Part shown: piece by piece, positions 9,584-54,575 of the stretch
Layout of the letters: each line of letters opens with the position of its first letter
Numbering within the stretch: position 1 is the stretch's first letter
Origin: Escherichia coli
GTDB lineage: Bacteria > Pseudomonadota > Gammaproteobacteria > Enterobacterales > Enterobacteriaceae
Length of the DNA stretch: 64,000 nucleotides
Direction: 5' to 3' (one strand)
NCBI RefSeq assembly: GCF_044324875.1
Contig: NZ_CP172185.1
Translations under genes and position numbers: made by a program
Notes under the pieces: model-generated
What the model saw: only the letters and a program-made list of their open reading frames with translations
Databases searched by the model: none
What the model was told of the DNA's origin: nothing

Positions 9584-12500
9584 ATGGCAGATAATCCAAA
9601 CCTTTCATCGCCCCTGCCGGACGTGTTTTCACCGGCAACCCGCGACTGGTTTCTTCGCGCCTTTAAACAGCCGACCGCTGTCCAGTCGCAAACCTGGCAT
9701 GTGGCGGCGCGAGGCGAACATGCGCTGGTGATTGCACCGACTGGCTCCGGGAAAACGCTGGCAGCATTTCTCTACGCCCTCGATCAGCTCTTCCGCGAAG
9801 GCGGCGAAGATACCCGCGAGGCGCATAAACGTAAAACCTCACGCATCCTCTATATTTCACCGATCAAAGCTCTGGGCACCGACGTTCAGCGCAACTTGCA
9901 GATCCCGTTACAGGGTATTGCCGATGAACGGCGGCGGCGCGGCGAAACGGAAGTCAATCTTCGCGTGGGGATCCGTACTGGCGATACGCCTGCACAGGAA
10001 CGCAGCAAACTCACCCGTAATCCGCCGGATATTCTGATCACCACACCCGAATCACTCTATCTGATGCTGACCTCCCGCGCGCGCGAAACGCTACGCGGCG
10101 TCGAAACGGTAATTATTGATGAAGTCCACGCGGTAGCGGGCAGTAAACGTGGTGCGCATCTGGCGTTAAGTCTGGAGCGGCTCGATGCGCTGCTCCACAC
10201 CTCAGCACAGCGAATTGGCCTTTCTGCCACTGTACGCTCAGCCAGCGATGTTGCAGCATTTCTTGGTGGCGATCGCCCGGTTACGGTAGTAAACCCGCCC
10301 GCAATGCGCCATCCGCAGATACGGATTGTCGTACCGGTCGCCAATATGGATGATGTCTCATCGGTCGCCAGCGGCACCGGCGAAGACAGCCATGCCGGCC
10401 GAGAAGGCTCCATCTGGCCATATATTGAAACGGGTATCCTTGATGAAGTTTTGCGCCATCGCTCGACCATTGTCTTTACTAATTCACGCGGGCTGGCGGA
10501 AAAACTGACGGCACGATTGAATGAACTTTACGCCGCACGCTTACAGCGTTCCCCGTCTATCGCCGTTGATGCGGTCCATTTCGAGTCGACCTCCGGCGCA
10601 ACCTCTAACCGTGTACAAAATAGCGACATTTTTATTGCCCGCTCACACCACGGCTCCGTCTCTAAAGAACAACGAGCAATCACCGAACAGGCGCTGAAAT
10701 CGGGTGAATTACGCTGCGTGGTCGCAACCTCCAGTCTCGAACTGGGGATTGATATGGGCGCGGTGGATCTGGTGATTCAGGTGGCAACGCCGCTTTCTGT
10801 TGCCAGTGGGTTACAACGCATTGGACGTGCCGGACACCAGGTAGGTGGTATCTCCAAAGGGCTTTTTTTCCCCCGAACCAGGCGTGACTTAGTCGATTCC
10901 GCAGTCATTGTAGAGTGTATGTTCGCAGGCAGGCTGGAAAACCTGACACCGCCGCATAATCCACTCGACGTCCTTGCGCAGCAAACCGTTGCCGCCGCGG
11001 CGATGGATGCATTACAGGTAGACGAATGGTAATCCCGCGTACGCCGTGCCGCACCGTGGAAAGATCTGCCAAGACGTGTTTTTGACGCCACGCTGGATAT
11101 GCTTTCCGGGCGCTATCCCTCTGGCGATTTTTCTGCTTTTCGCCCCAAACTGGTCTGGAACCGGGAGACCGGGATATTGACCGCCCGACCTGGCGCTCAA
11201 TTGTTGGCGGTTACCAGCGGCGGCACCATTCCGGATCGTGGCATGTATAGCGTGTTATTACCCGAAGGTGAAGAACAGGCCGGTTCGCGGCGGGTGGGTG
11301 AACTGGATGAGGAGATGGTATATGAGTCGCGGGTGAACGACATTATCACTCTCGGCGCTACCTCATGGCGGATCCAGCAAATCACCCGCGATCAGGTGAT
11401 TGTGACTCCTGCTCCAGGTCGTTCTGCCCGCCTTCCCTTCTGGCGTGGTGAAGGTAACGGACGTCCGGCAGAATTAGGCGAGATGATCGGCGATTTTCTC
11501 CATTTACTGGCGGATGGCGCGTTCTTTTCCGGGACTATTCCCCCGTGGTTGGCAGAAGAAAATACGATCGCCAATATTCAGGGGTTGATTGACGAGCAGC
11601 GCAACGCGACGGGCATCGTTCCAGGTAGTCGTCATCTGGTCCTCGAACGGTGCCGTGATGAAATTGGTGACTGGCGTATTATTTTGCACTCTCCCTATGG
11701 AAGACGGGTGCATGAACCCTGGGCGCTGGCGATTGCCGGGCGAATACATGCACTATGGGGCGCTGACGCGTCTGTGGTTGCCAGTGATGACGGCATTGTT
11801 GCGCGCATTCCTGACACCGATGGTAAATTGCCTGATGCCGCGATTTTTTTGTTTGAACCAGAAAAGTTGCTGCAAATTGTCCGCGAGGCGGTAGGCAGCT
11901 CGGCACTTTTCGCCGCCCGTTTTCGCGAATGCTCCGCGCGGGCATTATTAATGCCGGGCCGCACGCCGGGCCATCGCACCCCGCTCTGGCAACAACGGCT
12001 GCGCGCCAGTCAGTTGCTGGAAATCGCTCAGGGATATCCGGATTTTCCGGTCATTCTCGAAACACTACGCGAATGTCTGCAAGATGTTTATGATCTTCCC
12101 GCGCTGGAACGTTTGATGCGTCGCCTGAACGGTGGCGAAATTCAAATATCCGATGTAACGACCACTACGCCTTCGCCTTTCGCCGCCAGTTTATTGTTCG
12201 GCTATGTCGCGGAATTTATGTACCAGAGCGACGCCCCGCTGGCAGAGCGCCGGGCATCCGTACTGTCGCTGGACAGCGAGTTACTGCGCAATCTACTCGG
12301 ACAGGTCGATCCGGGGGAATTACTCGACCCGCAGGTCATTCGCCAGGTGGAAGAAGAGTTGCAACGACTGGCTCCTGGCAGAAGAGCGAAAGGTGAAGAA
12401 GGATTGTTCGACCTGCTGCGCGAACTGGGGCCAATGACCGTTGAAGACCTGGCGCAACGACATACAGGCAGCAGTGAAGAGATTGCGTCGTATCTGGAAA

Positions 12501-13284
12501 ATCTTCTTGCAGTAAAACGAATCTTCCCGACCATGATTAGCGGGCAGGAGCGTCTTGCCTGTATGGATGATGCCGCCAGGCTGCGCGATGCTCTCGGCGT
12601 ACGACTACCAGAGTCACTGCCAGAGATTTATTTGCACCGAGTCAGTTACCCGCTTCGCGACCTCTTTCTGCGCTATCTCCGGGCTCATGCTCTGGTCACG
12701 TCTGAACAACTGGCTCATGAGTTTAGTCTCGGTACTGCCATTGTCGAAGAGCAACTTCAGCAACTGCGCGAACAGGGGCTGGTGATGAATCTGCAACAAG
12801 ACATCTGGGTGAGCGATGAAGTATTTCGTCGTCTGCGTTTGCGCTCGCTGCAAGCCGCCAGAGAAGCGACACGTCCCGTTGCGGCCACGACCTATGCGCG
12901 ATTGCTGCTGGAACGTCAGGGCGTATTACCCGCCACCGATGGTAGCCCGGCACTCTTTGCCTCAACATCGCCAGGCGTTTATGAGGGCGTGGATGGCGTG
13001 ATGCGGGTGATCGAACAGCTTGCTGGCGTTGGTTTACCCGCCTCACTCTGGGAAAGCCAGATCCTGCCTGCCCGCGTACGCGACTATTCGCCAGAAATGC
13101 TCGATGAATTACTGGCAACCGGTGCGGTTATCTGGTCGGGGCAAAAAAAGCTGGGTGAAGATGACGGTCTGGTGGCACTGCATCTACAGGAATATGCCGC
13201 AGAATCGTTCACTCCCGCCGAAGCAGATCAGGCGAATCGTTCGGCGCTGCAGCAAGCGATAATCGCTGTTCTGGCTGACGGAGG
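9584..13284 (+). pseudogene. lhr: lhr (large ATP-dependent helicase) 5' portion: in-frame TAA at 11030-11032, then truncated by prophage insertion
   Basis: ORFs 9584..11032 and 11099..13297 are in the same frame, separated by a single TAA; Walker A GSGKT and DEVH helicase motifs; frame runs into the prophage left end and stops at 13295-13297. Confidence 0.85.
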
Positions 13285-13297
13285 TGATCAGACATGA

Positions 13298-17413: not shown

Positions 17414-17944
17414 TTACTGCACATCCTGCTCAAAAGGAATTATTGAAAAATCCTCAATGTCGCTTTTAATGGAAATACCGGGAATATTTTTCACGGCCTC
17501 TTTTTCATTCAGGATAGCGTCTTTATTTATTTCCTCTTTTACACGAATAAAGCGCTCAAGCCCCAGACGTCTCAGTAATTCAATAACATTATCCGCCCCA
17601 CGGATACTGACTGATGGCGGACGGTTTCGCCACTGCACCTCGCCGGTGGTAAGGTTAGCGAACTTCACCTTCCCGTTGCCGGTCAGTTCATCACGGTGCG
17701 CCTCACACCATGTCTGGATACCGGACTGCAGTTCGGCCATGCGTTTTTTCAGGCTCTCGGTGAGCGGGGCATAACGTGCGGTGATATCGCCAATGGCGTC
17801 ATTCATTTCTGTTTCAGCCCTGACCAGTTCACGTTGTGCGTCACCGAGTAGTCTGATTCCCTCAATGACCTCTTCGCGTGTCCCTGGTACCCAGAGTGCC
17901 GCTGCGGCCTTGATACGTTTTGCCCCTTTTGTACTTTTTGCCAT
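17414..17944 (-). CDS. gam: Gam-like host-nuclease inhibitor (Mu Gam family)
   Basis: 176-aa ORF aligns along its length with recalled Mu Gam (TEMNDAI, WCEA.RDELT, RPPSVSIRG, GLERFIR, EDFSIIPFEQ). Confidence 0.85.
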   Translation of the reverse strand: MAKSTKGAKRIKAAAALWVPGTREEVIEGIRLLGDAQRELVRAETEMNDAIGDITARYAPLTESLKKRMAELQSGIQTWCEAHRDELTGNGKVKFANLTTGEVQWRNRPPSVSIRGADNVIELLRRLGLERFIRVKEEINKDAILNEKEAVKNIPGISIKSDIEDFSIIPFEQDVQ

Positions 17945-18243: not shown

Positions 18244-19410
18244 TTAAACTCCTTTGACAACGTCAGCGTTGACCTGTGGAACCCCGATTTCAGCGGCCAG
18301 ATTCATGGCGGCTATTACCAGGTTACTGACGGCCAGCGGATACAGCAGGCTGACCATATTTTTACGATGACTTCCCGGATTGCTCAGGCGGGCACGTATG
18401 GCATCCACTGCGCTGGCGTCCATAATGTCCGTCAGTTGTTTACCGGCCCGTTGCAGTTTGAACGTCAGAAATTCTTCAAGGTTATTGTCCAGAGGCAGAA
18501 GTTCGACCACCTCACAGCGCTGAACGACTTCACGGACTTCCATATTGCGTTCAGACAGTTTTGTCGCCAGTTCCGGCTGGCCAATCAGCACGATGGACAG
18601 CAGTTTTTTGAAACCGGACTCCAGCTCAAAAAAGCGTTTGAGGTGTTTCAGTGTCGGAATGGGCAGACTGTGGGCCTCCTCAATCACCAGAACGTGGCTG
18701 AACCCCGCCTGGCTGCTGTCTTTCAGGACGCGATGCAACTGGCGAAAGCGGGCGTCCTGACTGCGTCTGATGCTTTCCAGTGGTGCGATGGTACTGATAA
18801 TGGCTTCGGCAATAGCTGCTGCCTTCAGGGTTTTCCCTTTCACATCGTTGTCTTCCATAGCGATGATGTATGGCTCGATAACAATTACCGGCGCATTCTC
18901 GCGGTTAATACGTTCAGTCAGGTCGCGGCGCAGCGTGGATTTACCCGCACCGGACTCACCGATGACGGCCATAAACCCACCATGACGGGCTGTCTGGTAC
19001 AGCGCCTCACGCACGTAGCGAATGTCCGGGGTGGTGAACACATCATCAGAACCCTGCATGGCTTCATCGGCGAACGGGTCACGGAAAAGACCAAACGCTT
19101 TTTTGGTTGCTGGAAATAACACCTGTTTTTTGAGTAACATATTCTCTTCCTCACTGAGGCTCGTTTTATCTGTGGTACCCGCTGTACGGGGCGTGGCCGC
19201 GCCCTGTACAGCATCAAAACTCTTCGTTGTATCAATCCCCTGACTTTCCAGCCAGGACGCAAGACGCCGGCGCACTTCTCCGGGGCTGGTGCGGGGCCAC
19301 GCGTTATGATTCACAATCTGGGCCAGCGTGGCCTCAGAAACATCGACAGCTCTCGCCGCCACCGCCTGTGGAATACGGGCCTCTTTCAGTTGCTGCTTCA
19401 GTACCAGCAT
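18244..19410 (-). CDS. MuB-like transposition ATPase (AAA+)
   Basis: Walker A GESGAGKST; ATG at 19408-19410 preceded by GAGGAGGG SD; directly downstream of transposase. Confidence 0.75.
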   Translation of the reverse strand: MLVLKQQLKEARIPQAVAARAVDVSEATLAQIVNHNAWPRTSPGEVRRRLASWLESQGIDTTKSFDAVQGAATPRTAGTTDKTSLSEEENMLLKKQVLFPATKKAFGLFRDPFADEAMQGSDDVFTTPDIRYVREALYQTARHGGFMAVIGESGAGKSTLRRDLTERINRENAPVIVIEPYIIAMEDNDVKGKTLKAAAIAEAIISTIAPLESIRRSQDARFRQLHRVLKDSSQAGFSHVLVIEEAHSLPIPTLKHLKRFFELESGFKKLLSIVLIGQPELATKLSERNMEVREVVQRCEVVELLPLDNNLEEFLTFKLQRAGKQLTDIMDASAVDAIRARLSNPGSHRKNMVSLLYPLAVSNLVIAAMNLAAEIGVPQVNADVVKGV

Positions 19411-19420
19411 GTTTCCCTCC

Positions 19421-21190
19421 TCAGTTGCCGTTAACAATGCTGATAACGCTGCTGCGGGCCGGCGTGGTCAGCGTGGCCATGACTTCATCCAGTGCGGCTT
19501 CCGGTACGCCGTCCGGGTACTGTGCTGTTAACTGGCGGTAATGTTCCGGCGTCCAGGTCAGGCCGTCGGCGCTGAACTTATCGCGCAGGGCTTTCGCGGC
19601 CTCCACATGAGTCATGGGACGCTGTTCAGTGCGCGGTCCGCGTACGTCAGAGGCCTGACCACGCTTCGGTATACAGGCCGGAAGTGTGGCGTCATCAATA
19701 TGTTTATACGGGTCAAGCCGCCCGCCGAACGGCAGCGCCTTCGCCTTGCGTGCGGCAGCTGCATCTGCGGCGTTGTCTGTACCGGTGACCAGCGCTTCGG
19801 TTTCTTTTGCCGCCATCTGCGCCGGGGTTTCCGGCAGGGCTTTGTAACTTTCGCCAAATACCGCCGCGCCTTCAGCAAAGCCAAACTCGTTCTTTCTGAC
19901 CTCTTCGACCAGGAAGAACGTCTCGTGGCCGTCCTCACCGGTCAGAACCACCTGTGCCACATCGCTGCGCCACGGGTTACGGGTAATCATCAGTTTTTCA
20001 CCGACCAGTACGCCCGGTACCGTTGATACGTCAAATTCAGTGCCCCGGAACGAGACACGAAGTTTTGGCGTGACTTTGCGGAGTTCTGGTGCCGCCACAG
20101 CCAGTTCACGACATACCTCAACGGAAGGCGCTTTTTTCAGCTGCTCAGCAGTAATCTTCAGCCAGATATCCGTGCGGGTTTTACCGTGGCGGCTGTGAAC
20201 AGCCGTGGCGTTAAAGTGGCTGCGCCATTTCGCGGCCAGCGCGTTGAGTTCTTCCAGACTGTGAACCGGCCGGAACTTCAGACCCGGCTCCAGCTTGCGT
20301 TCGATAATGTCACGCGCCTTTTCCACCTGTCCGGTGGCGCGGGCGTTATGCGGCTTGTGCGCTATCAGGTCGATGCCCAGTGAGCGGCACATGTTTTTCG
20401 TCATACCCGCGGTGTTTGCCGAGCCGGGGTCGAGATAGAGTATTTTTGGCACGCCGTGCAGCACGTCTGCGCCGCCACGCTCCTGCATGGCGTTGATAAG
20501 CACAGAACACAGGTTCTCACCGGATTCCGCACCCGTCACATACTCAACGTAAATCCAGCCGCTGGCATGGTCGGTAATCTCGTAACTCCACACGCGGTCA
20601 CTGGCGATACGGGCAAGGTTAGCGGGCTTGTTTTTGTAGAATTTCGCGCTGTCCATCACCTGCAGCCCTTTATGTCCATTGCTCAGGTAGTAAAGCGTGC
20701 AGAGTGAGGCGTCAATCTGCCAGACATGATTGGGGTGCAGACTGGCCACTTCGGTATGCGGTGCAGGGGCATCCAGTTGTTCCGGGTGCAGGCCATAGTT
20801 ACGCAGGGCACGACTGATGGCATCTTCGGACAACGGGAAAAACTCACCGGTGGTTTCATCTGTTCTGCCTGCGGAGATAAAGCCGTTAGCCCGCAGGGTT
20901 TCCACTGCATCCGCGATGGAATAGAGACGCTTACCGTTCTTGCGGGTGGCCTCACGTAGTGTGGCAGATATCAGCGCGGCTTCGTCGCGGGTCAGGGTGC
21001 TGCGTCCGGCATCGGCGCGTTTTTTGCGTTTATCAGTCACAGAGACCTCCTTCAGCCTGCGCAGCAGAGTGGCGCGGGACATGCCAAGTTCAGCACAGGC
21101 AGCGTCGTATATTGCACCGCGTTTACCATGCCCCGCATTACGTGCCGCGCGGGCTGTTTCAACAAGTTTTTCAGTCAGTGCCGGGGTCAT
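19421..21190 (-). CDS. DDE transposase (Mu A-like function, rve-type catalytic core with N-terminal HTH)
   Basis: 589-aa ORF; HTH RATLLRRLKEV; HVWQIDASLC core; position upstream of MuB-like gene. Confidence 0.8.
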   Translation of the reverse strand: MTPALTEKLVETARAARNAGHGKRGAIYDAACAELGMSRATLLRRLKEVSVTDKRKKRADAGRSTLTRDEAALISATLREATRKNGKRLYSIADAVETLRANGFISAGRTDETTGEFFPLSEDAISRALRNYGLHPEQLDAPAPHTEVASLHPNHVWQIDASLCTLYYLSNGHKGLQVMDSAKFYKNKPANLARIASDRVWSYEITDHASGWIYVEYVTGAESGENLCSVLINAMQERGGADVLHGVPKILYLDPGSANTAGMTKNMCRSLGIDLIAHKPHNARATGQVEKARDIIERKLEPGLKFRPVHSLEELNALAAKWRSHFNATAVHSRHGKTRTDIWLKITAEQLKKAPSVEVCRELAVAAPELRKVTPKLRVSFRGTEFDVSTVPGVLVGEKLMITRNPWRSDVAQVVLTGEDGHETFFLVEEVRKNEFGFAEGAAVFGESYKALPETPAQMAAKETEALVTGTDNAADAAAARKAKALPFGGRLDPYKHIDDATLPACIPKRGQASDVRGPRTEQRPMTHVEAAKALRDKFSADGLTWTPEHYRQLTAQYPDGVPEAALDEVMATLTTPARSSVISIVNGN

Positions 21191-23557: not shown

Positions 23558-24322
23558 TTAGAAATTGCAGATCACCAGCTCACGGCGTGGAGTTGATTTG
23601 CCTGCCAGACTGTAGTTGATGTTCACTGTCTGTATGTTCAGTCCAGTGAACACCTCGCGCATCTGCGGGATGTCGTTCACCGAAATTATCATCTTTCCTC
23701 TGATGCACCGGGCCAGCTCTGCCAGCCGCGAGTAGTTCCCTTCAGGAAAATCCACACCATAGCCTTCTGTACCCAGATACGGCGGGTCACAGTAGAACAG
23801 CGTGTGCGGACGGTCATAGCGCTCAATGCACTGTTGCCAGTCCATGTGTTCTATCACCGTTCTGGAAAGCCGCAGGTGTGCCGCTGACAGTTCTTCCTCG
23901 ATACGCAGCAGGTTGAAGCGTGGCGGGGATGTGGTGGAGGTGCCGAAGCTGTGCTCTGCCACCTTGCCGCCAAACGCCTGCTTCTGGAGGTAGTAGAACC
24001 GTGCTGCACGCTGGATATCCGTCAGTGTTTCTGTCGGGGTGATCTGCAGCCATTTGTAGATCTGCCGGCTGACCAGCGCCCATTTGAACTGGCGGACAAA
24101 TTCTTCCAGATGATGTTTTACCACCCGATACAGATTTACCAGTTCACCATTGATATCGTTAATGACTTCGAGCTTACCAGGTGTCTTAAGAAAATAGAGC
24201 GCTGCTGCGCCGCAGAACGGCTCCACGTAACATTCATGCGCCGGAAACAGCGGCAGGATGTGTTTTGCCAGGCGACGTTTGCCACCAATCCATGGAACGA
24301 TGGGTAATGTCTGCATTTTCAT
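23558..24322 (-). CDS. Dam-type N6-adenine DNA methyltransferase (D12 class)
   Basis: 254-aa ORF with DPPY catalytic motif and N-terminal FCGAAALYF SAM-binding motif. Confidence 0.8.
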   Translation of the reverse strand: MKMQTLPIVPWIGGKRRLAKHILPLFPAHECYVEPFCGAAALYFLKTPGKLEVINDINGELVNLYRVVKHHLEEFVRQFKWALVSRQIYKWLQITPTETLTDIQRAARFYYLQKQAFGGKVAEHSFGTSTTSPPRFNLLRIEEELSAAHLRLSRTVIEHMDWQQCIERYDRPHTLFYCDPPYLGTEGYGVDFPEGNYSRLAELARCIRGKMIISVNDIPQMREVFTGLNIQTVNINYSLAGKSTPRRELVICNF

Positions 24323-26875: not shown

Positions 26876-27167
26876 CCTGCTAAAAAATCTGCCGTGGCGC
26901 AGTCTGCTGCTGGCAGTGCTCATAAATGCTTTTCTGATTGGACTTTATTACCTGGGCTACAAAAGTGCAAAATGGCATCTGAATCGATCGCAGTTTGGCA
27001 TTCGAATCGATCATGATTTGGCATCCATCTCCGATCACAGTTTGGCATCACAATCGATCACGATTTGGCATGCTTCCGATCATTGATTGGCATCCTGCCA
27101 GTCACTCCGGGAATTAACTCTTTTCACCACAGTCTCCATTGCCGTGTTTAAACCAGTGGAGACGTCA

Positions 27168-28733
27168 ATGTCCAGAAAGAGAAAATCCAGGAGCACTATG
27201 GAAACCTGTTTTAAGATCCTTCAGCTCAAGTTCGACAAGAAGCTGACTAACCGTTGTATCGGACTGACGTTACACATCAGCGCCTCAACCGTTTTTGAGG
27301 TTCTTGCCCGCTTCAAAGCCTCTTCTCTGTCATGGCCATTACCTGCTGATATATCCCATGACACGCTGGAGAAACTCATTTTTCCGCCCAAAGACACCTT
27401 TGCATCAGAGCTTGTAATGCCTGACATGTTGTACTTCGATACGGAAATGAGAAAACCAGGTGTGACGCGGCAACTGTTGTGGATGGAATACAAGGCACAG
27501 GCGGGTAACAAAGCGATGGGATACTCGCACTTCTGCCGTTGCTACCGGGAGTGGAAAAAAACGCGACGTCTCTCCATGCGCCAGGAGCATCGTGCCGGCG
27601 AAAAGCTTTTTATCGACTTCTGTGGTCCTACGGTTCCTGTTATTAATCCGGACACCGGTGAGATACGCCGCGTGGCAATCTTCGTGGCCGTAATGGGGGC
27701 GTCCAACTATACCTACGTTGAAGCGTGCGAAGGTCAGGACATGATGTCATGGTTAAATGCCCACAGCCGTTGCCTGACCTTCCTGGGCGGCGTACCGAAG
27801 CTGCTCATCCCCGATAACCTCAGAAGCGCAGTGAAAAAGGCCGATCGATATGAGCCTGTCATCAACGACAGTTATCAGGCACTGGCTGAGCACTATGGCA
27901 CGGTTATCATCCCGGCCCGACCACGCAAACCTAAAGATAAACCAAAAGCAGAAAACGGCGTCCTCATCGTTGAACGATGGCTTCTTGCCCGCATCCGTAA
28001 TGAAACCTTCCACACGCTCAGGGCGCTGAATGCGCGCCTTAGGGAGTTACTGACAGACATGAATAACCGGCCAATGAAGGGGTACGGCAATCAAACCCGT
28101 GCAGAACGCTTCCGCATACTGGATGCGCCAGCACTCTCTCCGCTGCCTCTGGCACCTTATGAATACACGGAATACAAAGCTGTGAAGGTTGGCCCTGACT
28201 ACCACGTTGAATATGCCCGTCACTGGTACTCCGTTCCACACGAACTGGTCGGTCAGCGTCTGTCACTGAAGGCGGGGCAGTCGGTGGTACAGCTCTGGCA
28301 CAAGGGGCAGTGTGTGGCGCAACATCCGCGCAGCACACATGAATATAAACACACAACCAATCCGCTTCACATGCCAGAGCGCCACCGGCAGCACGGGACA
28401 TGGACACCGGAACGCCTGATCGAGCAGGGAAAACGTACGGGCCCGTCCACAGGCCGGGTGGTTGAATCCATGCTGAAGGCAAAACCCCATCCGGAACTGG
28501 CTTATCGTGCAGTTCTGGGGCTGCTGGCACTTCAGAAAAAATACGGCCCGGAACGGCTGGAAAAGGCCTGTTACGTTGCCCTGCACTATAACGCCCCTGA
28601 CAGACGCTTTATCGACAATCTGCTGCGTCACCATCGGGAGAACCTGGAGCTTCCATTATCCCGCCAGGGCGAACAACATCCGGCATATGCTTCAGAGCAT
28701 GAAAACCTGCGTGGTCCGGGCTACTACCACTGA
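27168..28733 (+). CDS. istA: IS21-family transposase IstA
   Basis: N-terminal HTH plus DDE core (FIDFCGP ... IPDNLRS ... VERW); start uncertain (27087 TTG to 27198 ATG). Confidence 0.8.
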   Translation: MSRKRKSRSTMETCFKILQLKFDKKLTNRCIGLTLHISASTVFEVLARFKASSLSWPLPADISHDTLEKLIFPPKDTFASELVMPDMLYFDTEMRKPGVTRQLLWMEYKAQAGNKAMGYSHFCRCYREWKKTRRLSMRQEHRAGEKLFIDFCGPTVPVINPDTGEIRRVAIFVAVMGASNYTYVEACEGQDMMSWLNAHSRCLTFLGGVPKLLIPDNLRSAVKKADRYEPVINDSYQALAEHYGTVIIPARPRKPKDKPKAENGVLIVERWLLARIRNETFHTLRALNARLRELLTDMNNRPMKGYGNQTRAERFRILDAPALSPLPLAPYEYTEYKAVKVGPDYHVEYARHWYSVPHELVGQRLSLKAGQSVVQLWHKGQCVAQHPRSTHEYKHTTNPLHMPERHRQHGTWTPERLIEQGKRTGPSTGRVVESMLKAKPHPELAYRAVLGLLALQKKYGPERLEKACYVALHYNAPDRRFIDNLLRHHRENLELPLSRQGEQHPAYASEHENLRGPGYYH

Positions 28734-28749
28734 CAGAAGGAACAACAGT

Positions 28750-29505
28750 ATGAGTGATAACCTGTTAAACAAACTGACCCAACTGAAACTCCCGGCGATG
28801 GCCGGGAGCCTGATACGGCAGCGGGAAACGCCTCAGACCTACGACGAACTGTCGTTCGAGGAAAGGCTGACGCTGCTGGTTGATGACGAGCTTCTGAGCA
28901 GGGAAAACAGCCGTGTGGCACGGTTGAGAAAAAATGCCGGCCTGAAATACCAGGCAACACCGGAAGGGCTGCGCTATCCGGCCTCAAGAGGTCTGCGGGC
29001 TGAACAGATGAGAGAACTGCTGAACGGCCACTACATAACCCACAGGAAAAACCTGCTGATAACCGGTCCGACAGGATGTGGCAAGAGCTGGATAGCCAAT
29101 GCGCTGGGCGAACAGGCATGTCGACAGAAACACAGCGTCCGGTACTGTAGAACCGGGCGATTACTGGAACAACTGGCTCAGGGACGTGTTGATGGCAGCT
29201 GGCTGAAATATCTGAAACAGTTGCAAAAAATACAGGTTCTAATCCTGGACGATCTGGGGCTGGAACAGTTAAGTAACGCCCAGTGTAATGACCTTCTGGA
29301 GCTCATAGAGGATCGTTACGGACAAAGCAGCACGATAGTGGTAAGCCAGTTCCCGGTAGATAAATGGCATGGTCTGATGGAGAACCCAACAACAGCAGAT
29401 GCCATCCTGGACAGACTGGTACATAACTCACACCGAGTGGTCCTTCAGGGAGAGTCACTGAGGAAAAATCCCCCGGTAGTGGAAAGCAGCGAAAAAACGC
29501 GTTAA
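28750..29505 (+). CDS. istB: IS21-family helper ATPase IstB
   Basis: 251-aa ORF with Walker A GPTGCGKSWIA; ATG at 28750 a few bp after istA stop. Confidence 0.85.
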   Translation: MSDNLLNKLTQLKLPAMAGSLIRQRETPQTYDELSFEERLTLLVDDELLSRENSRVARLRKNAGLKYQATPEGLRYPASRGLRAEQMRELLNGHYITHRKNLLITGPTGCGKSWIANALGEQACRQKHSVRYCRTGRLLEQLAQGRVDGSWLKYLKQLQKIQVLILDDLGLEQLSNAQCNDLLELIEDRYGQSSTIVVSQFPVDKWHGLMENPTTADAILDRLVHNSHRVVLQGESLRKNPPVVESSEKTR

Positions 29506-49512: not shown

Positions 49513-50083
49513 GCCATTACAACTCCCGCCACCGCTTGAGGGTGATATCAGTCTCAGGACGCTGGGAAGACTGGCAGGACGGCTGGATAACATCGACCTG
49601 AGCGTACTGATGGTCTTTCTCGTCGATATCGTCGACAGTTCCGCGCTGCCATGGCTGGGCGAGCAGTTCTCACTGTCTGGCGATGGCTGGGAGCTGGCGG
49701 AATCGGACGATGTTCGCCGCATGCTTATAAAAGCAGCCATCGAACTGCACCGGTATAAAGGGACGCCGTGGTCAATCCGGGAAGTTATCCGCCGTTTTGG
49801 CTTTGGTGAAGTGGATCTGATTGAAGGCACAGGTCGTCTCAGTTACGACGGCAATCGCAGCTATAACGGACTGTTTGTTCATGGAGATGCAGCCGCCTGG
49901 GCAGTTTATCGCGTTATTCTGAAACAGCCCATTACTAACGATCAGGCCGCGATGCTGCGTCAGACGCTGGCTGCATTTGCACCGGCCCGCTGCCATCTGG
50001 CCAGCCTGGAGTATCAGTCTGTGGCCATTCGCTATAACAATACCGCCATCCATGATGGCAGTTATAACCACGGGAGCAGTTGA
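49493..50083 (+). CDS. tail protein (gpI-like)
   Basis: 196-aa ORF before tail fibre. Confidence 0.55.
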   Translation: MECLMTEPLQLPPPLEGDISLRTLGRLAGRLDNIDLSVLMVFLVDIVDSSALPWLGEQFSLSGDGWELAESDDVRRMLIKAAIELHRYKGTPWSIREVIRRFGFGEVDLIEGTGRLSYDGNRSYNGLFVHGDAAAWAVYRVILKQPITNDQAAMLRQTLAAFAPARCHLASLEYQSVAIRYNNTAIHDGSYNHGSS

Positions 50084-51798
50084 TTATGGGAAACCTGAAT
50101 GAAACAGAAAAGTGGGAAGAAAATATCTATCAACTGGAGACATCAGATCCGGTTCTGGGTGGTGCAGACGGGATATCAAATCGAGCCCCCCGGCAACTGG
50201 CAAACAGGACGAAATGGCTGAAGAAGAAAACGGAGGAAGCCGCACAGTCACTGGCTGAACACGTACGTTCCCGTAACCACCCGGACGCGACACTGACAGC
50301 TAAGGGGTTCACCCAACTGAGCAGTGCCACCAACAGCACCTCTGAAACGCTGGCCGCCACACCAAAAGCGGTCAAGGCTGCATACGACCTGGCAGCCGGC
50401 AAGGCGCCTGCCAGCCACACTCACCCGTGGAGTCAGATAACGGGAGTGCCTGCGGCTTCACTGACGGCAAAAGGCACCGTACAACTGAGCAGCGCCACGG
50501 ACAGTCAATCAGAAACTGAGGCTGCCACGCCGAAGGCTGTGAAAATCGCGTATGATCTGGCCCGGGGAAAATACACAGCCCAGGATGCAACAACGACCCG
50601 TAAAGGGATCGTACAACTGAGCAGTGCCATCAACAGCACGTCTGAAACGCTGGCCGCCACACCGAAAGCGGTCAAGGCTGCATACGACCTGGCAGCCGGC
50701 AAGGCGCCTGCCAGCCACACTCACCCGTGGAGTCAGATAACGGGAGTGCCTGCGGCTTCACTGACGGCAAAAGGCACCGTACAACTGAGCAGCGCCACGG
50801 ACAGTCAATCAGAAACTGAGGCTGCCACGCCGAAGGCTGTGAAAATCGCGTATGATCTGGCCCGGGGAAAATACACAGCCCAGGATGCAACAACGACCCG
50901 TAAAGGGATCGTACAACTGAGCAGTGCCATCAACAGCACGTCTGAAACGCTGGCCGCCACACCGAAAGCGGTCAAGGCTGCATACGACCTGGCAGCCGGC
51001 AAGGCGCCTGCCAGCCACACTCACCCGTGGAGTCAGATAACGGGAGTGCCTGCGGCCTCGCTGACGGCAAAAGGCACCGTACAACTGAGCAGTGCCATCA
51101 ACAGCACGTCTGAAATACTGGCCGCCACACCGAAAGCGGTCAAGGCTGCATACGATCTGGCAAACGGAAAACAACCGGCAGATGCCACGCTCACTGCTCT
51201 GGCAGGACTTGCCACTGCAGCAGATCGGTTGCCTTATTTTACCGGAGCAGACCGCGCAGCGCTGGCAACCCTTACAGCTATTGGTCGCGCTATTATCGCT
51301 AAGGGCAGTATAAAAGATGTCCTCAATTACCTTGGTTTGGGGGAAGGCTCTGCATTGCCTGTTGGTGTACCGGTTCCATGGCCCACCGCCACACCGCCAG
51401 CAGGCTGGTTACAGTGCAACGGAGCTACGTTCACCAAAGAACAATATCCTGTTCTGGCCAGAGTCTACCCGACCCTCCGTCTTCCCGATTTGCGCGGTGA
51501 GTTTATCCGTGGATGGGACGGTGGTCGCAAGGTTGATACCGGGCGTGCGCTACTTTCATTTCAGGAAGGGACTATCGTATCCGGTTTTGATGATAATGAT
51601 ACCGGAGATATCAGTTCGCTCGGCTCTACACAATACGGATTTGGTGACGCTTTAACCTCTAATCAACTGGGGGTCATAAATGGCAAAAAGTGGATATTTG
51701 ATGCATCCTCTAAAGGTGCACAAAGATATGACTGGTGGGCTTATGTATCAGCTCGCCCCCGCAATATCGCATTTAACTATATCGTGAGGGCGGCGTGA
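50080..51798 (+). CDS. side tail fibre protein (Stf-like) with invertible variable C-terminus
   Basis: 572-aa ORF with repeated TAKGxVQLSSAxNSTSETLAATPKAVK motifs, PWP region and C-terminal NIAFNYIVRAA as in lambda Stf. Confidence 0.8.
   Translation: MIMGNLNETEKWEENIYQLETSDPVLGGADGISNRAPRQLANRTKWLKKKTEEAAQSLAEHVRSRNHPDATLTAKGFTQLSSATNSTSETLAATPKAVKAAYDLAAGKAPASHTHPWSQITGVPAASLTAKGTVQLSSATDSQSETEAATPKAVKIAYDLARGKYTAQDATTTRKGIVQLSSAINSTSETLAATPKAVKAAYDLAAGKAPASHTHPWSQITGVPAASLTAKGTVQLSSATDSQSETEAATPKAVKIAYDLARGKYTAQDATTTRKGIVQLSSAINSTSETLAATPKAVKAAYDLAAGKAPASHTHPWSQITGVPAASLTAKGTVQLSSAINSTSEILAATPKAVKAAYDLANGKQPADATLTALAGLATAADRLPYFTGADRAALATLTAIGRAIIAKGSIKDVLNYLGLGEGSALPVGVPVPWPTATPPAGWLQCNGATFTKEQYPVLARVYPTLRLPDLRGEFIRGWDGGRKVDTGRALLSFQEGTIVSGFDDNDTGDISSLGSTQYGFGDALTSNQLGVINGKKWIFDASSKGAQRYDWWAYVSARPRNIAFNYIVRAA
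50287..51178 (+). repeat. tandem repeats in tail fibre gene (300-bp units, near-identical, with ~100-bp sub-repeats)
   Basis: Identical reverse-frame ORFs 50372..50593 and 50672..50893 show an exact 300-bp period; protein repeat of about 100 aa x3. Confidence 0.75.
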
Positions 51799-51804
51799 TA
51801 CCGT

Positions 51805-52419
51805 TCAGCCGGCAAGCGCCAGTGGCGCTTCCGGCCAGCTGATTTCAGGTGCCTTGCTGATATCCAGTGCGTTCAGCTCGTCGATATAATCCAGCACGGC
51901 GTTCAGTTTTGCCGTTTCTTCTGGTTTCAGACTGCGACCTGCCCGCAGTTTGAGGTTGATGAGGTCGATGGACTTCATCGCCTGATCCACCCGTTCCTGG
52001 CGTTGCAGTCTGGCAACCTCCAGCTCTGCGGCTCGCTGCCGTTCAGTATCGGTTACCCACGCCTCACCGTTCCAGGTATCCCATGGCGTGGCCGGCTGTT
52101 TTGTGGTGGTGTCCGCCGGGTAATCACCCGGCTGGGTAATCTGAACGGGAGTACCGTTCTCCGTGCTGTATACCGTCTCGCCGCGGTGATCAGGCACATG
52201 TTCCCACCCGTTCAGCGTGGCAGTCCGGCAAACCACGTAACCCGAAATTGCCTCCGGCGGTGCATCGGCGCACGAATGTGCCGGAGTACCCACCCCAAGG
52301 GCGAGATACTCCACAGAGGATGAGGTGTATTCCCGGGTTTCCTCGTCATAGTGATATACAGTGATATCGCCCGCTACAGTGGCGATACCGTTTTCATCCA
52401 GAACTGCAGTGTTACTCAT
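51805..52419 (-). CDS. tail fibre assembly protein (Tfa/U-like), cognate to the alternative fibre tip
   Basis: 204-aa ORF of Tfa type downstream of the alternative fibre C-terminus on the minus strand. Confidence 0.7.
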   Translation of the reverse strand: MSNTAVLDENGIATVAGDITVYHYDEETREYTSSSVEYLALGVGTPAHSCADAPPEAISGYVVCRTATLNGWEHVPDHRGETVYSTENGTPVQITQPGDYPADTTTKQPATPWDTWNGEAWVTDTERQRAAELEVARLQRQERVDQAMKSIDLINLKLRAGRSLKPEETAKLNAVLDYIDELNALDISKAPEISWPEAPLALAG

Positions 52420-52901
52420 TAAACTGCCCTCACAATGTAATTAAGTGCAATGCTACGGGGTCTGACAGTGATACCCTTCGCATACCCGCTTCTGATAGAG
52501 GTCAGAATAGTAGCCTGCATACCATTGTCTGACATTGCCACGACAGGATCGCTGAATGTTGTCCCGTCCGGCATTTTAAAGCTGCCCTCACGAAGGTCTG
52601 TAATGGAATCTTCATTGTTGAATCCCATGCCGACTATCCCCGAGGTTCCCGTAGTGTCCTGGTTATAATAATCCAGCATTGCTGTTCTTAACAGCGTTGC
52701 CCCTTGTGCGGACAGCAACTTACGTCCTGTATCAACTTTGCGCCCGTCGTCCCATCCACGGATAAACTCACCGCGCAAATCGGGAAGACGGAGGGTCGGG
52801 TAGGCTCTGGCCAGAACAGGATATTGTTCTTTTGTAAAGGCGCGCCCGTCGCACTTTAACCAGCCTGCTGGCGGTGTGGCGGTGGGCCACGGAACAGGCA
52901 C
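52419..52901 (-). CDS. alternative tail fibre C-terminal cassette (promoterless in current orientation)
   Basis: Begins PVPWPTATPPAGWL..., paralogous to the plus-strand fibre tip, ends NYIVRAV; lies inside the invertible segment. Confidence 0.7.
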   Translation of the reverse strand: MPVPWPTATPPAGWLKCDGRAFTKEQYPVLARAYPTLRLPDLRGEFIRGWDDGRKVDTGRKLLSAQGATLLRTAMLDYYNQDTTGTSGIVGMGFNNEDSITDLREGSFKMPDGTTFSDPVVAMSDNGMQATILTSIRSGYAKGITVRPRSIALNYIVRAV

Positions 52902-53002
52902 ACCAACGGGTAGCGCCGAGCCTTCTCCTAAACCAACGTTTATCTCTCAAATCCTCCTCACATTATCTCAGTACTTTAACCACTCAAAAGGGAGTATTTT
53001 TA

Positions 53003-53575
53003 ATGCTGATTGGCTACATACGTGTGTCAACAAATGACCAAAACACAGATTTGCAACGCAATGCATTAATGTGCGCAGGATGTGAACAGATTTTTGAGGA
53101 CAAAATGAGCGGAACCAAGTCGGAACGACCAGGCCTGAAACGCGCTTTAAAGTGCCTTAAAAGAGGGGATACATTGGTGGTCTGGAAGCTGGATCGGTTG
53201 GGTAGAAGAATGAAACACCTCATTGCTCTCACAGAAGAGCTACGCGCAAAAGGTGTCAATTTTCGCAGTCTGACGGATTCAATCGATACCAGCACTCCGA
53301 TGGGAAGGTTCTTTTTTCATATGATGGGTGCACTGGCAGAAATGGAGCGTGAACTGATAGTTGAGCGCACGCTGGCAGGACTGGCTGCTGCGCGAGCACA
53401 AGGGAGAGTTGGAGGACGTCGCCCGAAACTGACGAAGGAGCAGCATGAGCAGATCGCAAGATTGCTCCAGAAAGGGTATGACAGAAAGCGGCTGGCAATT
53501 ATCTATGATATTGGACTGTCAACGATCTACCGCTATCACCCTGTTGGGACTGTCATAACGGAACCTGAAATGTAA
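53003..53575 (+). CDS. gin: Gin/Hin/Cin-family serine DNA invertase
   Basis: MLIGYIRVSTNDQNTDLQRNAL... closely matches Mu Gin; ATG at 53003 with AAAGGGAG SD. Confidence 0.9.
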   Translation: MLIGYIRVSTNDQNTDLQRNALMCAGCEQIFEDKMSGTKSERPGLKRALKCLKRGDTLVVWKLDRLGRRMKHLIALTEELRAKGVNFRSLTDSIDTSTPMGRFFFHMMGALAEMERELIVERTLAGLAAARAQGRVGGRRPKLTKEQHEQIARLLQKGYDRKRLAIIYDIGLSTIYRYHPVGTVITEPEM

Positions 53576-53610
53576 TTCTTTTTCAAATAATGAAACGCCG
53601 CGTGGATGCC

Positions 53611-53640
53611 ATTTATCGCACAAGATAGAGCGCATTTATC
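53611..53640. repeat. right-end terminal repeats (ATTTATC x2), putative transposase binding sites
   Basis: CATTTATC at 53611-53617 and 53634-53640, inverted relative to left-end GATAAAT motifs. Confidence 0.4.
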
Positions 53641-53659
53641 GCGCGGCGCATCACGGAGG

Positions 53660-54575
53660 AGCCTGGTTTGCACAACAAATCAGCCAACGGATACGCGATA
53701 AAATCGGCGAATCGGTTGATCCCTCAGCCATGCAAGAGGCGTTATGGGCGCTGGTCTGGCAAGGCGTCATCACCAGCGACATTTGGGCACCGTTACGCGC
53801 CCTCACCCGCAGCAGTTCCAACGCACGCACCTCGACTCGCCGCAGTCACCGGGCTCGTCGTGGGCGTCCTGTCTATGCACAACCCGTCTCGCCACGGGTA
53901 TCTTACAACACACCAAATCTTGCTGGACGCTGGTCGTTATTGCAGGTGGAGCCACTAAACGATACCGAAAGGATGCTGGCGCTGGCGGAAAATATGCTCG
54001 ACCGCTACGGCATCATCAGTCGTCAGGCGGTGATAGCCGAAAATATCCCTGGCGGGTTTCCATCGATGCAAACGCTTTGTCGAAGTATGGAAGACTCCGG
54101 GCGAATTATGCGAGGTCGTTTTGTAGAAGGTCTGGGGGGTGCGCAATTCGCTGAACGTCTGACTATTGACCGATTGCGCGATCTGGCGACACAAGCCACG
54201 CAAACGCGCCACTATACACCAGTGGCGCTCTCCGCCAACGATCCGGCTAATGTGTGGGGAAATCTTCTGCCCTGGCCTGCACATCCGGCAACGCTGGTTC
54301 CAACGCGTCGGGCGGGTGCGCTGGTGGTCGTTTCTGGCGGCAAATTGTTACTCTATCTGGCGCAAGGCGGCAAAAAAATGCTGGTCTGGCAGGAAAAAGA
54401 TGAATTACTCGCCCCAGAGATTTTCCAGGCGCTGACCACCGCACTGCGTCGCGAACCACGGCTGCGCTTTACGCTAACAGAAGTGAATGATCTACCGGTC
54501 CGGCAAACGCCGATGTTTACGCTGCTGCGTGAGGCGGGATTTTCAAGTTCGCCACAAGGGCTGGATTGGGGATAG
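53660..54575 (+). pseudogene. lhr: lhr 3' portion downstream of prophage
   Basis: Frame continues from the junction through ORF 53730..54575; 5' plus 3' parts total 4617 nt. Confidence 0.85.

Follow-up and report, generated by a model that had tools for sequence, protein, structure and literature searches.

DNA-invertase switches of the Gin/Hin/Cin/Pin/Min type are built on two inverted 26-bp crossover sites with identical 2-bp cores, and an invertase-type small serine recombinase, with its catalytic serine close to the N-terminus and a C-terminal HTH, is encoded beside the segment. In the G segment of phage Mu and the C segment of phage P1, the invertible DNA closes a Mu-type tail operon and is followed directly by the invertase gene, and a constant 5' part of the fibre gene is joined in frame to alternative 3' parts. 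Both have a mirror-image layout of two facing pairs, each consisting of a tip and an assembly gene; the annotated records show U and U' (56% identical) in each phage, in line with the one assembly gene per tip that the preliminary description of the present locus had ascribed to them. The P2-like switches also have two tfa genes, as in Mu and P1. Min of p15B is a multiple-inversion tail-fibre shufflon. A literature search on it yielded nothing informative about the number of Tfa genes, and the P1-like Punavirus vB_EcoM-673R5 served as its proxy in the comparisons below. Enterobacter FRphi, likened here by its description, shows an isoform ratio of 50:25:25, which fits three sites and four isomers (PMC13418256).

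The closest described element is that of prophage Phi2 of E. coli EC958, an invertible tail-fibre segment whose inversion was visible in PacBio reads (Forde 2014, PLoS One, PMC4134206). The excerpted text of that paper speaks generically of a "mirror image" with a "cognate minor tail fibre gene" and has no remark on Phi2 having one such gene alone. The element analyzed here, found in a 64,000-nt stretch of E. coli DNA (the window), is the same as that of Phi2 and hence already known. It is interpreted, with a probability of about 0.88, as a site-specific inversion switch of the Gin/Min family by which a Mu-type prophage exchanges the tip of its tail fibre and with it the range of bacteria that it can infect. 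The presence of the switch is not news, because such switches are textbook biology and this element has been published. The family is widespread, however well known: it occurs in E. coli (hundreds of genomes, ST131 among them), in Salmonella and in P1-like phage-plasmids. The question it sharpens is how several receptor-binding tips are matched with one assembly gene, i.e., whether Tfa is needed by Collar-type tips or is an accessory that can be removed. This matters for client recognition by tail-fibre chaperones and for the engineering of phage host range with swappable tips.

The prophage and its inversion switch

The Mu-type transposable prophage (~40.4 kb, 13285-53653, plus strand) is inserted in the host gene lhr, which it splits into residues 1-1234 (9584-13297) and residues 1258-1538 (53730-54575). 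Its ends, read from the sequence, are TG...CA termini with GATAAATG motifs repeated at both ends, and a CGGAGG direct repeat flanks it at 13279-13284 and 53654-53659. The transposition genes, all on the minus strand, are Transposase A-like (19421-21190), a B-like transposition protein (18244-19437) and Gam (17414-17944). The same prophage is found in other genomes in different disrupted genes; the insertion places, that of the window included, are lhr, a phosphopentomutase gene, srlE, dgcQ, a P2 lysB, and beside aroA. The A-like, B-like and Gam genes, the flanking duplication and the varied insertion places mark it as a Mu-type transposable phage.

The fibre-gene repeat, given in the preliminary description as 51335-51535 recurring inverted at 52740-52940, consists of two 229-nt arms at 51329-51557 (plus strand) and 52711-52939 (minus strand) that are 86% complementary and separated by 1153 nt. 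The left arm codes for the conserved N-terminal Collar framework of one tip (tip A) and the right arm for the conserved N-terminal framework of the other (tip B). Where gix-like sequences had been proposed at the segment ends, two 26-bp crossover sites of the hix/gix type with TT cores can be read directly. The left one, TCCTCAATTACC-TT-GGTTTGGGGGAA, is at 51320-51345 on the plus strand with its core at 51332-51333; the right one, GAGAGATAAACG-TT-GGTTTAGGAGAA on the minus strand, is at 52923-52948 with its core at 52935-52936. A 22-nt motif, ACSTTGGTTTRGGRGAAGGCTC, has exactly two matches across the 64 kb, inverted relative to each other, when up to two mismatches are allowed; zero are expected by chance. 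The two sites are thus the inverted pair with identical cores that is required of a switch of this type. The 1601 bp between the cores (51334-52934) hold tip A on the plus strand and tfa and tip B on the minus strand, the content that had been reported earlier.

As now assembled, the tail-fibre gene (50080-51798, plus strand, 572 aa) is composed of the constant part Sc (50080-51331), which has six Phage_fiber_2 repeats, and tip A (51331-51798), a Collar domain with a variable insert. The tip B cassette (52419-52937, minus strand) has 172 codons counted from the crossover core and contains the alternative-tip ORF at 52419-52901. It has neither its own promoter nor its own start codon, and tip B is expressed solely once inversion joins the cassette to Sc. 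Flipping the segment in silico with the 2-bp cores fixed kept the frame and gave Sc plus tip B, followed by tfa. The invertase would bring the inverted 26-bp sites together, exchange strands at the TT cores and flip the 1601 bp; the late operon would then yield Sc plus tip A in the window orientation and Sc plus tip B, with Tfa directly after, in the flipped orientation. Genome annotation pipelines split these fibre genes into "partial" pseudogenes. A search of a large protein database for fixed, non-invertible fibres with the tip A insert gave cassette-sized proteins of 86-149 aa alone.

Directly downstream of the segment, as claimed for gin, lies the gene for a Gin-family serine DNA invertase (53003-53575, plus strand, 190 aa). 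The protein shares 76% identity with Mu Gin and 73% with P1 Cin, conserves Ser9 in the motif YIRVSTNDQ, and matches the PHROG "DNA invertase" family with E=1e-94, which places it in the invertase subfamily of small serine recombinases. The stretch 53021-53092 is the counterpart of the annotated P1 enhancer; its higher nucleotide conservation (75-76% identity versus 63-68% for the remaining gene) is the sole ground for regarding it as a putative Fis-dependent enhancer. The overall structure given in the preliminary description, an invertase-flanked, in-frame segment that holds two tips but a single Tfa gene, was right throughout.

Both orientations, with exchange at the core, occur across genomes; the window strain itself is known from one sequence. 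By BLAST at a coverage of at least 80%, with two-tip and three-tip elements pooled, the A junction was found in 201 complete E. coli genomes, B in 327, C in 163 and the C-A' isomer in 130. With the A and B junctions both abundant, the refuting condition of the preliminary description, a single orientation being all that is ever observed, does not hold. The flipped junction predicted from the window has a 100% match over 900 bp in three genomes. Strain AR_0085 has the two-cassette element in the flipped state, its Tfa and recombinase accessions being the same as in the window. When the two copies are compared, the outer half-sites are unchanged and the inner half-sites exchanged, and the exchange is therefore confined to 7 bp around the TT core. 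The A/B site pair is the pair that recombines in ST131. At one aroA-flanked insertion all four isomers were found, with identical protein accessions.

These findings leave the reading of the repeat as a remnant, in which the loss of a third tip and a lower arm identity have frozen the window copy in state A, very improbable. Arm identity is indeed 86% here versus 96% for the EC958 outer sites, and just two sites are left. Against it speak the intact state of the invertase ORF and of the two 26-bp sites, the flipped AR_0085 element, the three genomes with the predicted flipped junction and the recombination of the A/B pair in ST131.

Relation to Phi2 and to the multiple-cassette shufflons

The likeness to EC958 extends to the half-sites. 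According to Table 3 of the paper (PMC4134206), the outer half and TT core of the left site are identical to those of "Phi2_5prime" and its inner half to that of "Phi2_3prime"; conversely, the outer half and core of the right site are identical to those of "Phi2_3prime" and its inner half to that of "Phi2_5prime". The inner half-sites are in swapped places because EC958 is in another inversion state. The prophage type is identical, the invertase is 99.5% identical to the copy in an EC958-type record, and the Sc, tip A, tip B and tfa sequences are 98-99% identical. EC958 differs by an additional cassette (tip C) and by a third site between the outer two, which is absent from the sites listed in the paper (PMC4134206). 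The segment between its outer sites is 2067 bp as given there, versus 1601 bp in the window, where tip C is missing. The window copy is regarded as a reduced derivative because its nearest relatives, 98-99% identical, carry three sites and occur as all four isomers. The ancestor would have been a three-cassette, three-site, four-isomer shufflon from which tip C was lost between two directly repeated sites.

Similar elements are present in Min-type relatives, namely the P1-like vB_EcoM-673R5 and a Salmonella Mu-type prophage. In both, a site of the form ...AAACG-TT-GGTTTGGGG precedes each promoterless Collar-tip cassette, one tfa is coupled to one cassette, and the invertase is 80-84% identical. 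The Salmonella relative has 5 sites, 5 cassettes and one tfa, and vB_EcoM-673R5 has about five tips and one tfa, with a frameshift-split invertase of 80-83% identity; the cassette counts are approximate because the records hold frameshifted cassettes. Min-type elements have more than two crossover sites and the window has two. The mirror-image layout of Mu G and P1 C is likewise not that of the window, which has one assembly gene.

Neither the tips nor Tfa are Mu-like. The tips match the Collar-type structures 9cuy and 2xgf, and Tfa falls into one group with its counterparts in HK97 and P2-like phages; no relative of Tfa was found among solved structures. BLASTP of the tips and Tfa against the S, U and U' proteins of Mu and P1 gave nothing significant, and Mu S matches the fibre at one shaft repeat only (query residues 225-263). 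The fixed fibre of HK97 and the P2-like T22 and pro483 share 79-80% identity in the Collar framework and 58-60% in Tfa with the window element, and their tip and tfa genes abut or overlap. In T22 and pro483, the Collar tip with its Tfa forms one arm of a two-tfa mirror-image switch. They and HK97 differ from the present family in that each Collar tip is followed by Tfa, whereas tip A here and tips C and D of the relatives are without it.

One assembly gene for several tips

The sole tail-fibre assembly gene in the window (51805-52419, minus strand) codes for a 204-aa Tfa that matches Caudo_TAP (PF02413) with E=4.2e-26 and PHROG 105 with E=5e-87. This family profile and the place of the gene directly downstream of a tip predict a chaperone role. 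Its ATG overlaps the stop codon of tip B (TAATG), and a GAGGG Shine-Dalgarno sequence of its own lies 7 nt upstream. The start/stop overlap is compatible with a B-specific partner as well as with a generalist. When Tfa was searched by tblastn against the whole window with E up to 100, it retrieved itself only, all others having E>0.5. The plus-strand frames within the segment are stop-rich or antisense-like and include no credible ORF. The claim that only the alternative tip has an assembly gene downstream is therefore borne out by the single tblastn match, and the cryptic plus-strand Tfa that might have overturned it is not credible anywhere in the window.

A single tfa is also found in the three-tip E. 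coli relatives, the Salmonella relative and the P1-like phage. One tfa for several tips is the usual layout of this multi-cassette switch family and not special to the window copy. The oddity of one helper gene for several tips is thus real, yet typical of the family, and the element, being known, is of modest interest. In roughly half of the isomers, among them states A and C-A', tfa runs antisense to the late operon, and tip A and tfa have the same orientation in no isomer.

All tips have one Collar framework in common, and their difference is confined to an insert of 60-85 aa. Framework identity to tip B is 90-99% for tips A, C and D, and the insert of tip B is the longest among the tips compared. 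No systematic difference between Tfa-linked and Tfa-less tips was seen in length, C-terminal strand or framework. Among HK97, T22 and pro483, the Tfas have 87-88% mutual identity, the tip frameworks 85-94% and the inserts 19-32%. As judged from these sequences, Tfa co-varies with the Collar framework common to the tips and not with the variable inserts.

The Tfa-less cassettes are under purifying selection, with an omega (dN/dS) of 0.08 for tip D versus Salmonella t1 and 0.22 for the tip A insert versus Salmonella t3. For the Salmonella draft and P1-like cassettes, dN/dS was derived from intact stretches alone, and frameshifted cassettes were otherwise used for layout only. Because the Tfa-less cassettes are under purifying selection, tip A is held to be a working receptor-binding tip, as far as substitution patterns can tell.

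Supply of Tfa to tip A

If Tfa fits the framework common to the tips, one gene could serve every tip. In the preferred explanation Tfa is read as a generalist fitted to the Collar framework; by a slight lean only, it would be supplied to tip A, for example from an orientation-independent promoter, rather than dispensed with. Unaided folding and an independent promoter had both been raised in the preliminary description. The main alternative, which is possible though doubtful, is that tips A, C and D fold and trimerize without Tfa and that Tfa is the dedicated partner or distal adhesin of tip B alone, being therefore made only while B is expressed. The position of tfa, always directly behind the B-position cassette with stop and start overlapping, would suit such a dedicated partner, as would the longer insert of tip B. 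Tip A, though intact and under purifying selection, is never co-oriented with tfa, and the scan for sigma-70 promoters on both strands of 51200-53700 found 0, so none was detected for tfa. The same region has 3 terminator-like sites versus 1.9 expected, which is not beyond chance. A B-only Tfa is at odds, however, with the tracking by Tfa of the framework, 90-99% of which is common to tips A, B, C and D, and not of the tip insert. Moreover, about twelve phage records with fixed or mirror-image fibres invariably have a Tfa of this kind directly behind a Collar tip built on this framework.

It is unlikely that tip A needs Tfa and gets none, so that A and C-A' virions would be fibre-defective or reliant on the Tfa of other prophages; the states would then be truly unequal. 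The antisense position of tfa in these two states would have this effect, and related fibre/tfa modules that might help are several per genome (median 3-4 matching places). In the Enterobacter FRphi shufflon, only one of three locked isoforms infected, but that outcome was attributed to receptor specificity (PMC13418256). Purifying selection on the Tfa-less cassettes would not last if the fibres never worked, the layout is maintained across E. coli, Salmonella and P1-like phages, and co-induction of other prophages is not normal.

For the preferred supply of Tfa to tip A, a candidate extended -10 element, TGAGATAAT, was considered. It is located at 52962-52970 (minus strand) in the fixed spacer beside the invertase gene and is directed into the invertible segment. 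The Salmonella and P1-like single-tfa relatives have a similar TGGTATAGG at the equivalent place; no such element turned up in T22 or Mu. TGAGATAAT went undetected in the standard promoter scan. A leftward promoter beside the invertase was not accepted as a finding, given the reduction of the motif to TGGTATAGG in those relatives; the candidate is also weakened in that the spacer must house the invertase promoter too. The element is a weak and speculative lead.

The orientation of tfa might also act as a second switch on top of tip choice, with a generalist Tfa that binds the Collar framework and remains on the fibre; a related variant has a fixed promoter beside the invertase that feeds Tfa when tfa faces away from the late operon. 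The second switch is considered quite unlikely. If it were true, the isomers would set tip identity and the presence or absence of Tfa independently, and a three-cassette element would give rise to four functionally distinct virions and not three. Tip C with Tfa and tip C without Tfa are both real isomers of one locus.

The invertible segment and its orientations

The tail fibre gene (50080-51798, plus strand) encodes a 572 aa protein with six Phage_fiber_2 repeats and a Collar domain. It is followed by a tail-fibre assembly gene, tfa (51805-52419, minus; 204 aa; Caudo_TAP, E=4e-26), an alternative Collar tip, here tip B (52419-52901, minus; 160 aa; PHROG tail collar fibre), and an invertase gene (53003-53575, plus; 190 aa; PHROG "DNA invertase", E=1e-94). 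A repeat finder places inverted arms of 229 nt, 86% complementary, at 51329-51557 and 52711-52939, spaced by 1153 nt. Each arm opens with a 26-bp hix/gix-type site, TCCTCAATTACC-TT-GGTTTGGGGGAA at 51320-51345 on the left and GAGAGATAAACG-TT-GGTTTAGGAGAA at 52948-52923 (minus) on the right. The gene layout and the inverted repeat with gix-like sites thus agree with the preliminary description, the finding of which is accurate and the interpretation sound. A degenerate 22-nt motif derived from both sites, with up to two mismatches accepted, occurs twice in the 64-kb window, the copies inverted to each other, and is expected by chance not at all.

Inversion of 51334-52934 (1601 bp) in silico, with both 2-bp cores held fixed, fuses the constant part of the fibre (Sc) to tip B in frame; the product is a 589-aa fibre, with tfa directly next via an overlapping TAATG. 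Among 5,426 complete E. coli genomes searched by 900-bp junction queries (coverage cut-off 80%), the flipped junction was covered in 327, three of them at 100% identity, and the window's own junction, with tip A on Sc, in 201; both orientations of the proposed switch therefore occur. E. coli AR_0085 carries the same two-cassette element flipped, with Tfa and recombinase protein accessions identical to the window's. The inner half-sites are exchanged between the two and the outer ones unmoved, which narrows the exchange to a few bases around the TT core.

The segment is the already described invertible tail-fibre segment of prophage Phi2 of E. coli EC958. The two crossover sites listed for Phi2 are TCCTCAATTACCTT-GGTTTAGGAGAA and GAGAGATAAACGTT-GGTTTGGGGGAA (Forde et al. 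2014, PMC4134206). Their outer half-sites and TT cores are the same as the window's; the inner half-sites also match but have traded places, which reflects the different inversion state of EC958. The alternative orientation of Phi2 was recovered as a separate PacBio contig; in the accessible portions of that text the element is described in general terms as mirror-image, with a cognate "minor tail fibre gene", and neither Phi2's single such gene nor a third site is mentioned (PMC4134206). Unlike the window, EC958-type copies include tip C as a third cassette, with the third site right behind its stop codon.

The shaft contains three tandem 300-nt repeats (50280-51179) that encode Phage_fiber_2 repeats; the later copies share 95% and 83% identity with the first. 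Since shaft matches in other genomes are longer by 168 or 300 bp, shaft length appears to vary through repeat copy number; the gene is often split into "partial" pseudogenes by NCBI annotation. A perfect AGGAGG is found a little beyond the right crossover site, facing into the segment (52954-52959, minus), with no usable in-frame start after it; the nearest start is a TTG at a distance of 2 nt downstream, from which an ORF of 60 codons runs out of frame.

One assembly gene for several tips

The two assembly genes ascribed to Mu and P1 are present in both annotated records, arranged in Mu as S-U and U'-S' and equivalently in P1; within Mu, U and U' share 56% identity. The window, as had been claimed, holds a single one, no second Tfa being found in its 64 kb. 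The invertase, which keeps the catalytic serine, shares 76% identity with Gin and 73% with Cin; the stretch aligned to the annotated P1 enhancer shows 75-76% nucleotide identity versus 63-68% for the rest of the gene. By sequence comparison the tips and Tfa are not Mu-like. The match to Mu S is limited to a shaft repeat, BLASTP of the window Tfa against U and U' gave no similarity, and the structures matched by the window tip are of the Collar type: 9cuy, a short tail fibre, and 2xgf, the collar of T4 gp37.

About 12 phage records, including HK97, HK106, P2-like T22, pro483, and Klebsiella, Citrobacter and Salmonella phages, have, directly behind a Collar tip of the same framework, a Tfa with 57-62% identity to the window's. 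T22 and pro483 have mirror-image switches with two tfa genes, and the pair makes up one arm of each. The N-terminal ~72 residues and a C-terminal RPRN(I/V)AFNYIVRA strand are common to all well-sequenced tips; the tips differ solely in their inserts, which are 60-85 residues long and unrelated. Pairwise among HK97, T22 and pro483, identity is 87-88% for Tfa, 85-94% for the framework and 21-31% for the insert; tips A, C and D (a further relatives' cassette), which share their Tfa with tip B, are 90-99% identical to it in the framework and 24-32% in the insert. Because Tfa identity tracks the framework and not the insert, the window Tfa appears to be a generalist that fits the Collar framework, and one gene would thus be enough in coding terms. 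On codon comparison the Tfa-less cassettes are not decaying; omega (dN/dS) is ~0.08 for D versus Salmonella t1 and ~0.22 for the tip A insert versus Salmonella t3.

All four isomers expected from three sites were seen at one insertion flanked by aroA, where the accessions of Tfa, recombinase and aroA are the same throughout: Sc-A with tfa antisense (REF1), Sc-B-tfa (EC958), Sc-C, B' with tfa sense (GN04171) and Sc-C, A' with tfa antisense (E41-1). Genomes with the Sc-C junction number 163, those with the C-A' isomer 130. The window's right site, the outermost half-site joined to tip B, matches the remnant that would be expected from deletion of tip C between two directly repeated sites. In phage 503046 the A position is taken by tip D; a Mu-type prophage of Salmonella combines five sites and five cassettes with a single tfa (70% identical), and a P1-like Punavirus at least four sites, ~5 cassettes and one tfa. 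An Enterobacter prophage carries a three-isoform Gin tail-fibre shufflon with an isoform ratio of 50:25:25 (2026 paper, PMC13418256), the expectation for four equiprobable isomers; the term "tail fiber assembly" is absent from the text of that paper. One Tfa is the norm for this multi-cassette family, and no remark on it was found in the readable literature.

E. coli strain 4/0 (NZ_CP023849.1, 999303-1007253) has Sc-C, B' and tfa followed by a minus-strand full-length 570-aa fibre gene, behind which come the genes for tail protein I and the baseplate of another prophage. The arrangement suggests either that a large piece of the chromosome was inverted between two prophages' fibre crossover sites or that the assembly is at fault.

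Possible supply of Tfa to the other tips

In the window orientation and in the C-A' isomer, tfa is antisense to the late operon. One possible source of Tfa in these states is a promoter independent of orientation. We lean slightly towards all tips being supplied with Tfa, since Tfa looks like a generalist, fixed fibres of the same framework always come with a Tfa, and the Tfa-less tips are under selection. That tip A needs no Tfa is nearly as likely, and it is possible that the two antisense states are handicapped. A standard promoter scan returned no promoter. In the fixed spacer, TGAGATAAT at 52970-52962 (minus) resembles an extended -10 element and faces into the segment; its positional counterpart is TGGTATAGG in the Salmonella and P1-like relatives with a single tfa, and T22 and Mu have nothing comparable. 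The element is not strictly conserved and its spacer must house the invertase promoter too, so the candidate is a lead only. With its own GAGGG ribosome-binding site 7 nt ahead of the ATG, tfa could be translated from any transcript covering it.

The host prophage

The segment is part of a roughly 40.4-kb transposable prophage of the Mu type (13285-53653), which encodes A-like, B-like and Gam proteins. Its ends are TG...CA; GATAAATG motifs recur near each of them, and the flanks carry CGGAGG as a direct repeat (13279-13284 and 53654-53659). Unlike in Mu, the early genes (A-like, B-like and Gam) are on the opposite strand to the late genes, and com/mom are absent from their Mu place downstream of the invertase; a DNA methyltransferase (phrog_56) is encoded at 23558-24322 (minus). 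An ORF at 27087-28733, overlapped by another at 28507-29505, matches transposase family phrog_1157, distinct from the Mu A-like transposase, and could represent an insertion sequence carried by the prophage.

The insertion interrupts the helicase gene lhr, which also has an in-frame stop (...VDEW*SRVRR..., about 11030-11100) between ORFs 9584-11032 and 11099-13297; lhr is thus disrupted twice, the stop being separate from the insertion. The same prophage hit a different gene in each genome examined. In AR_0085 (NZ_CP029741.1) it has inserted into the spanin genes lysB/lysC of a P2-like prophage, so that one prophage is nested in another.
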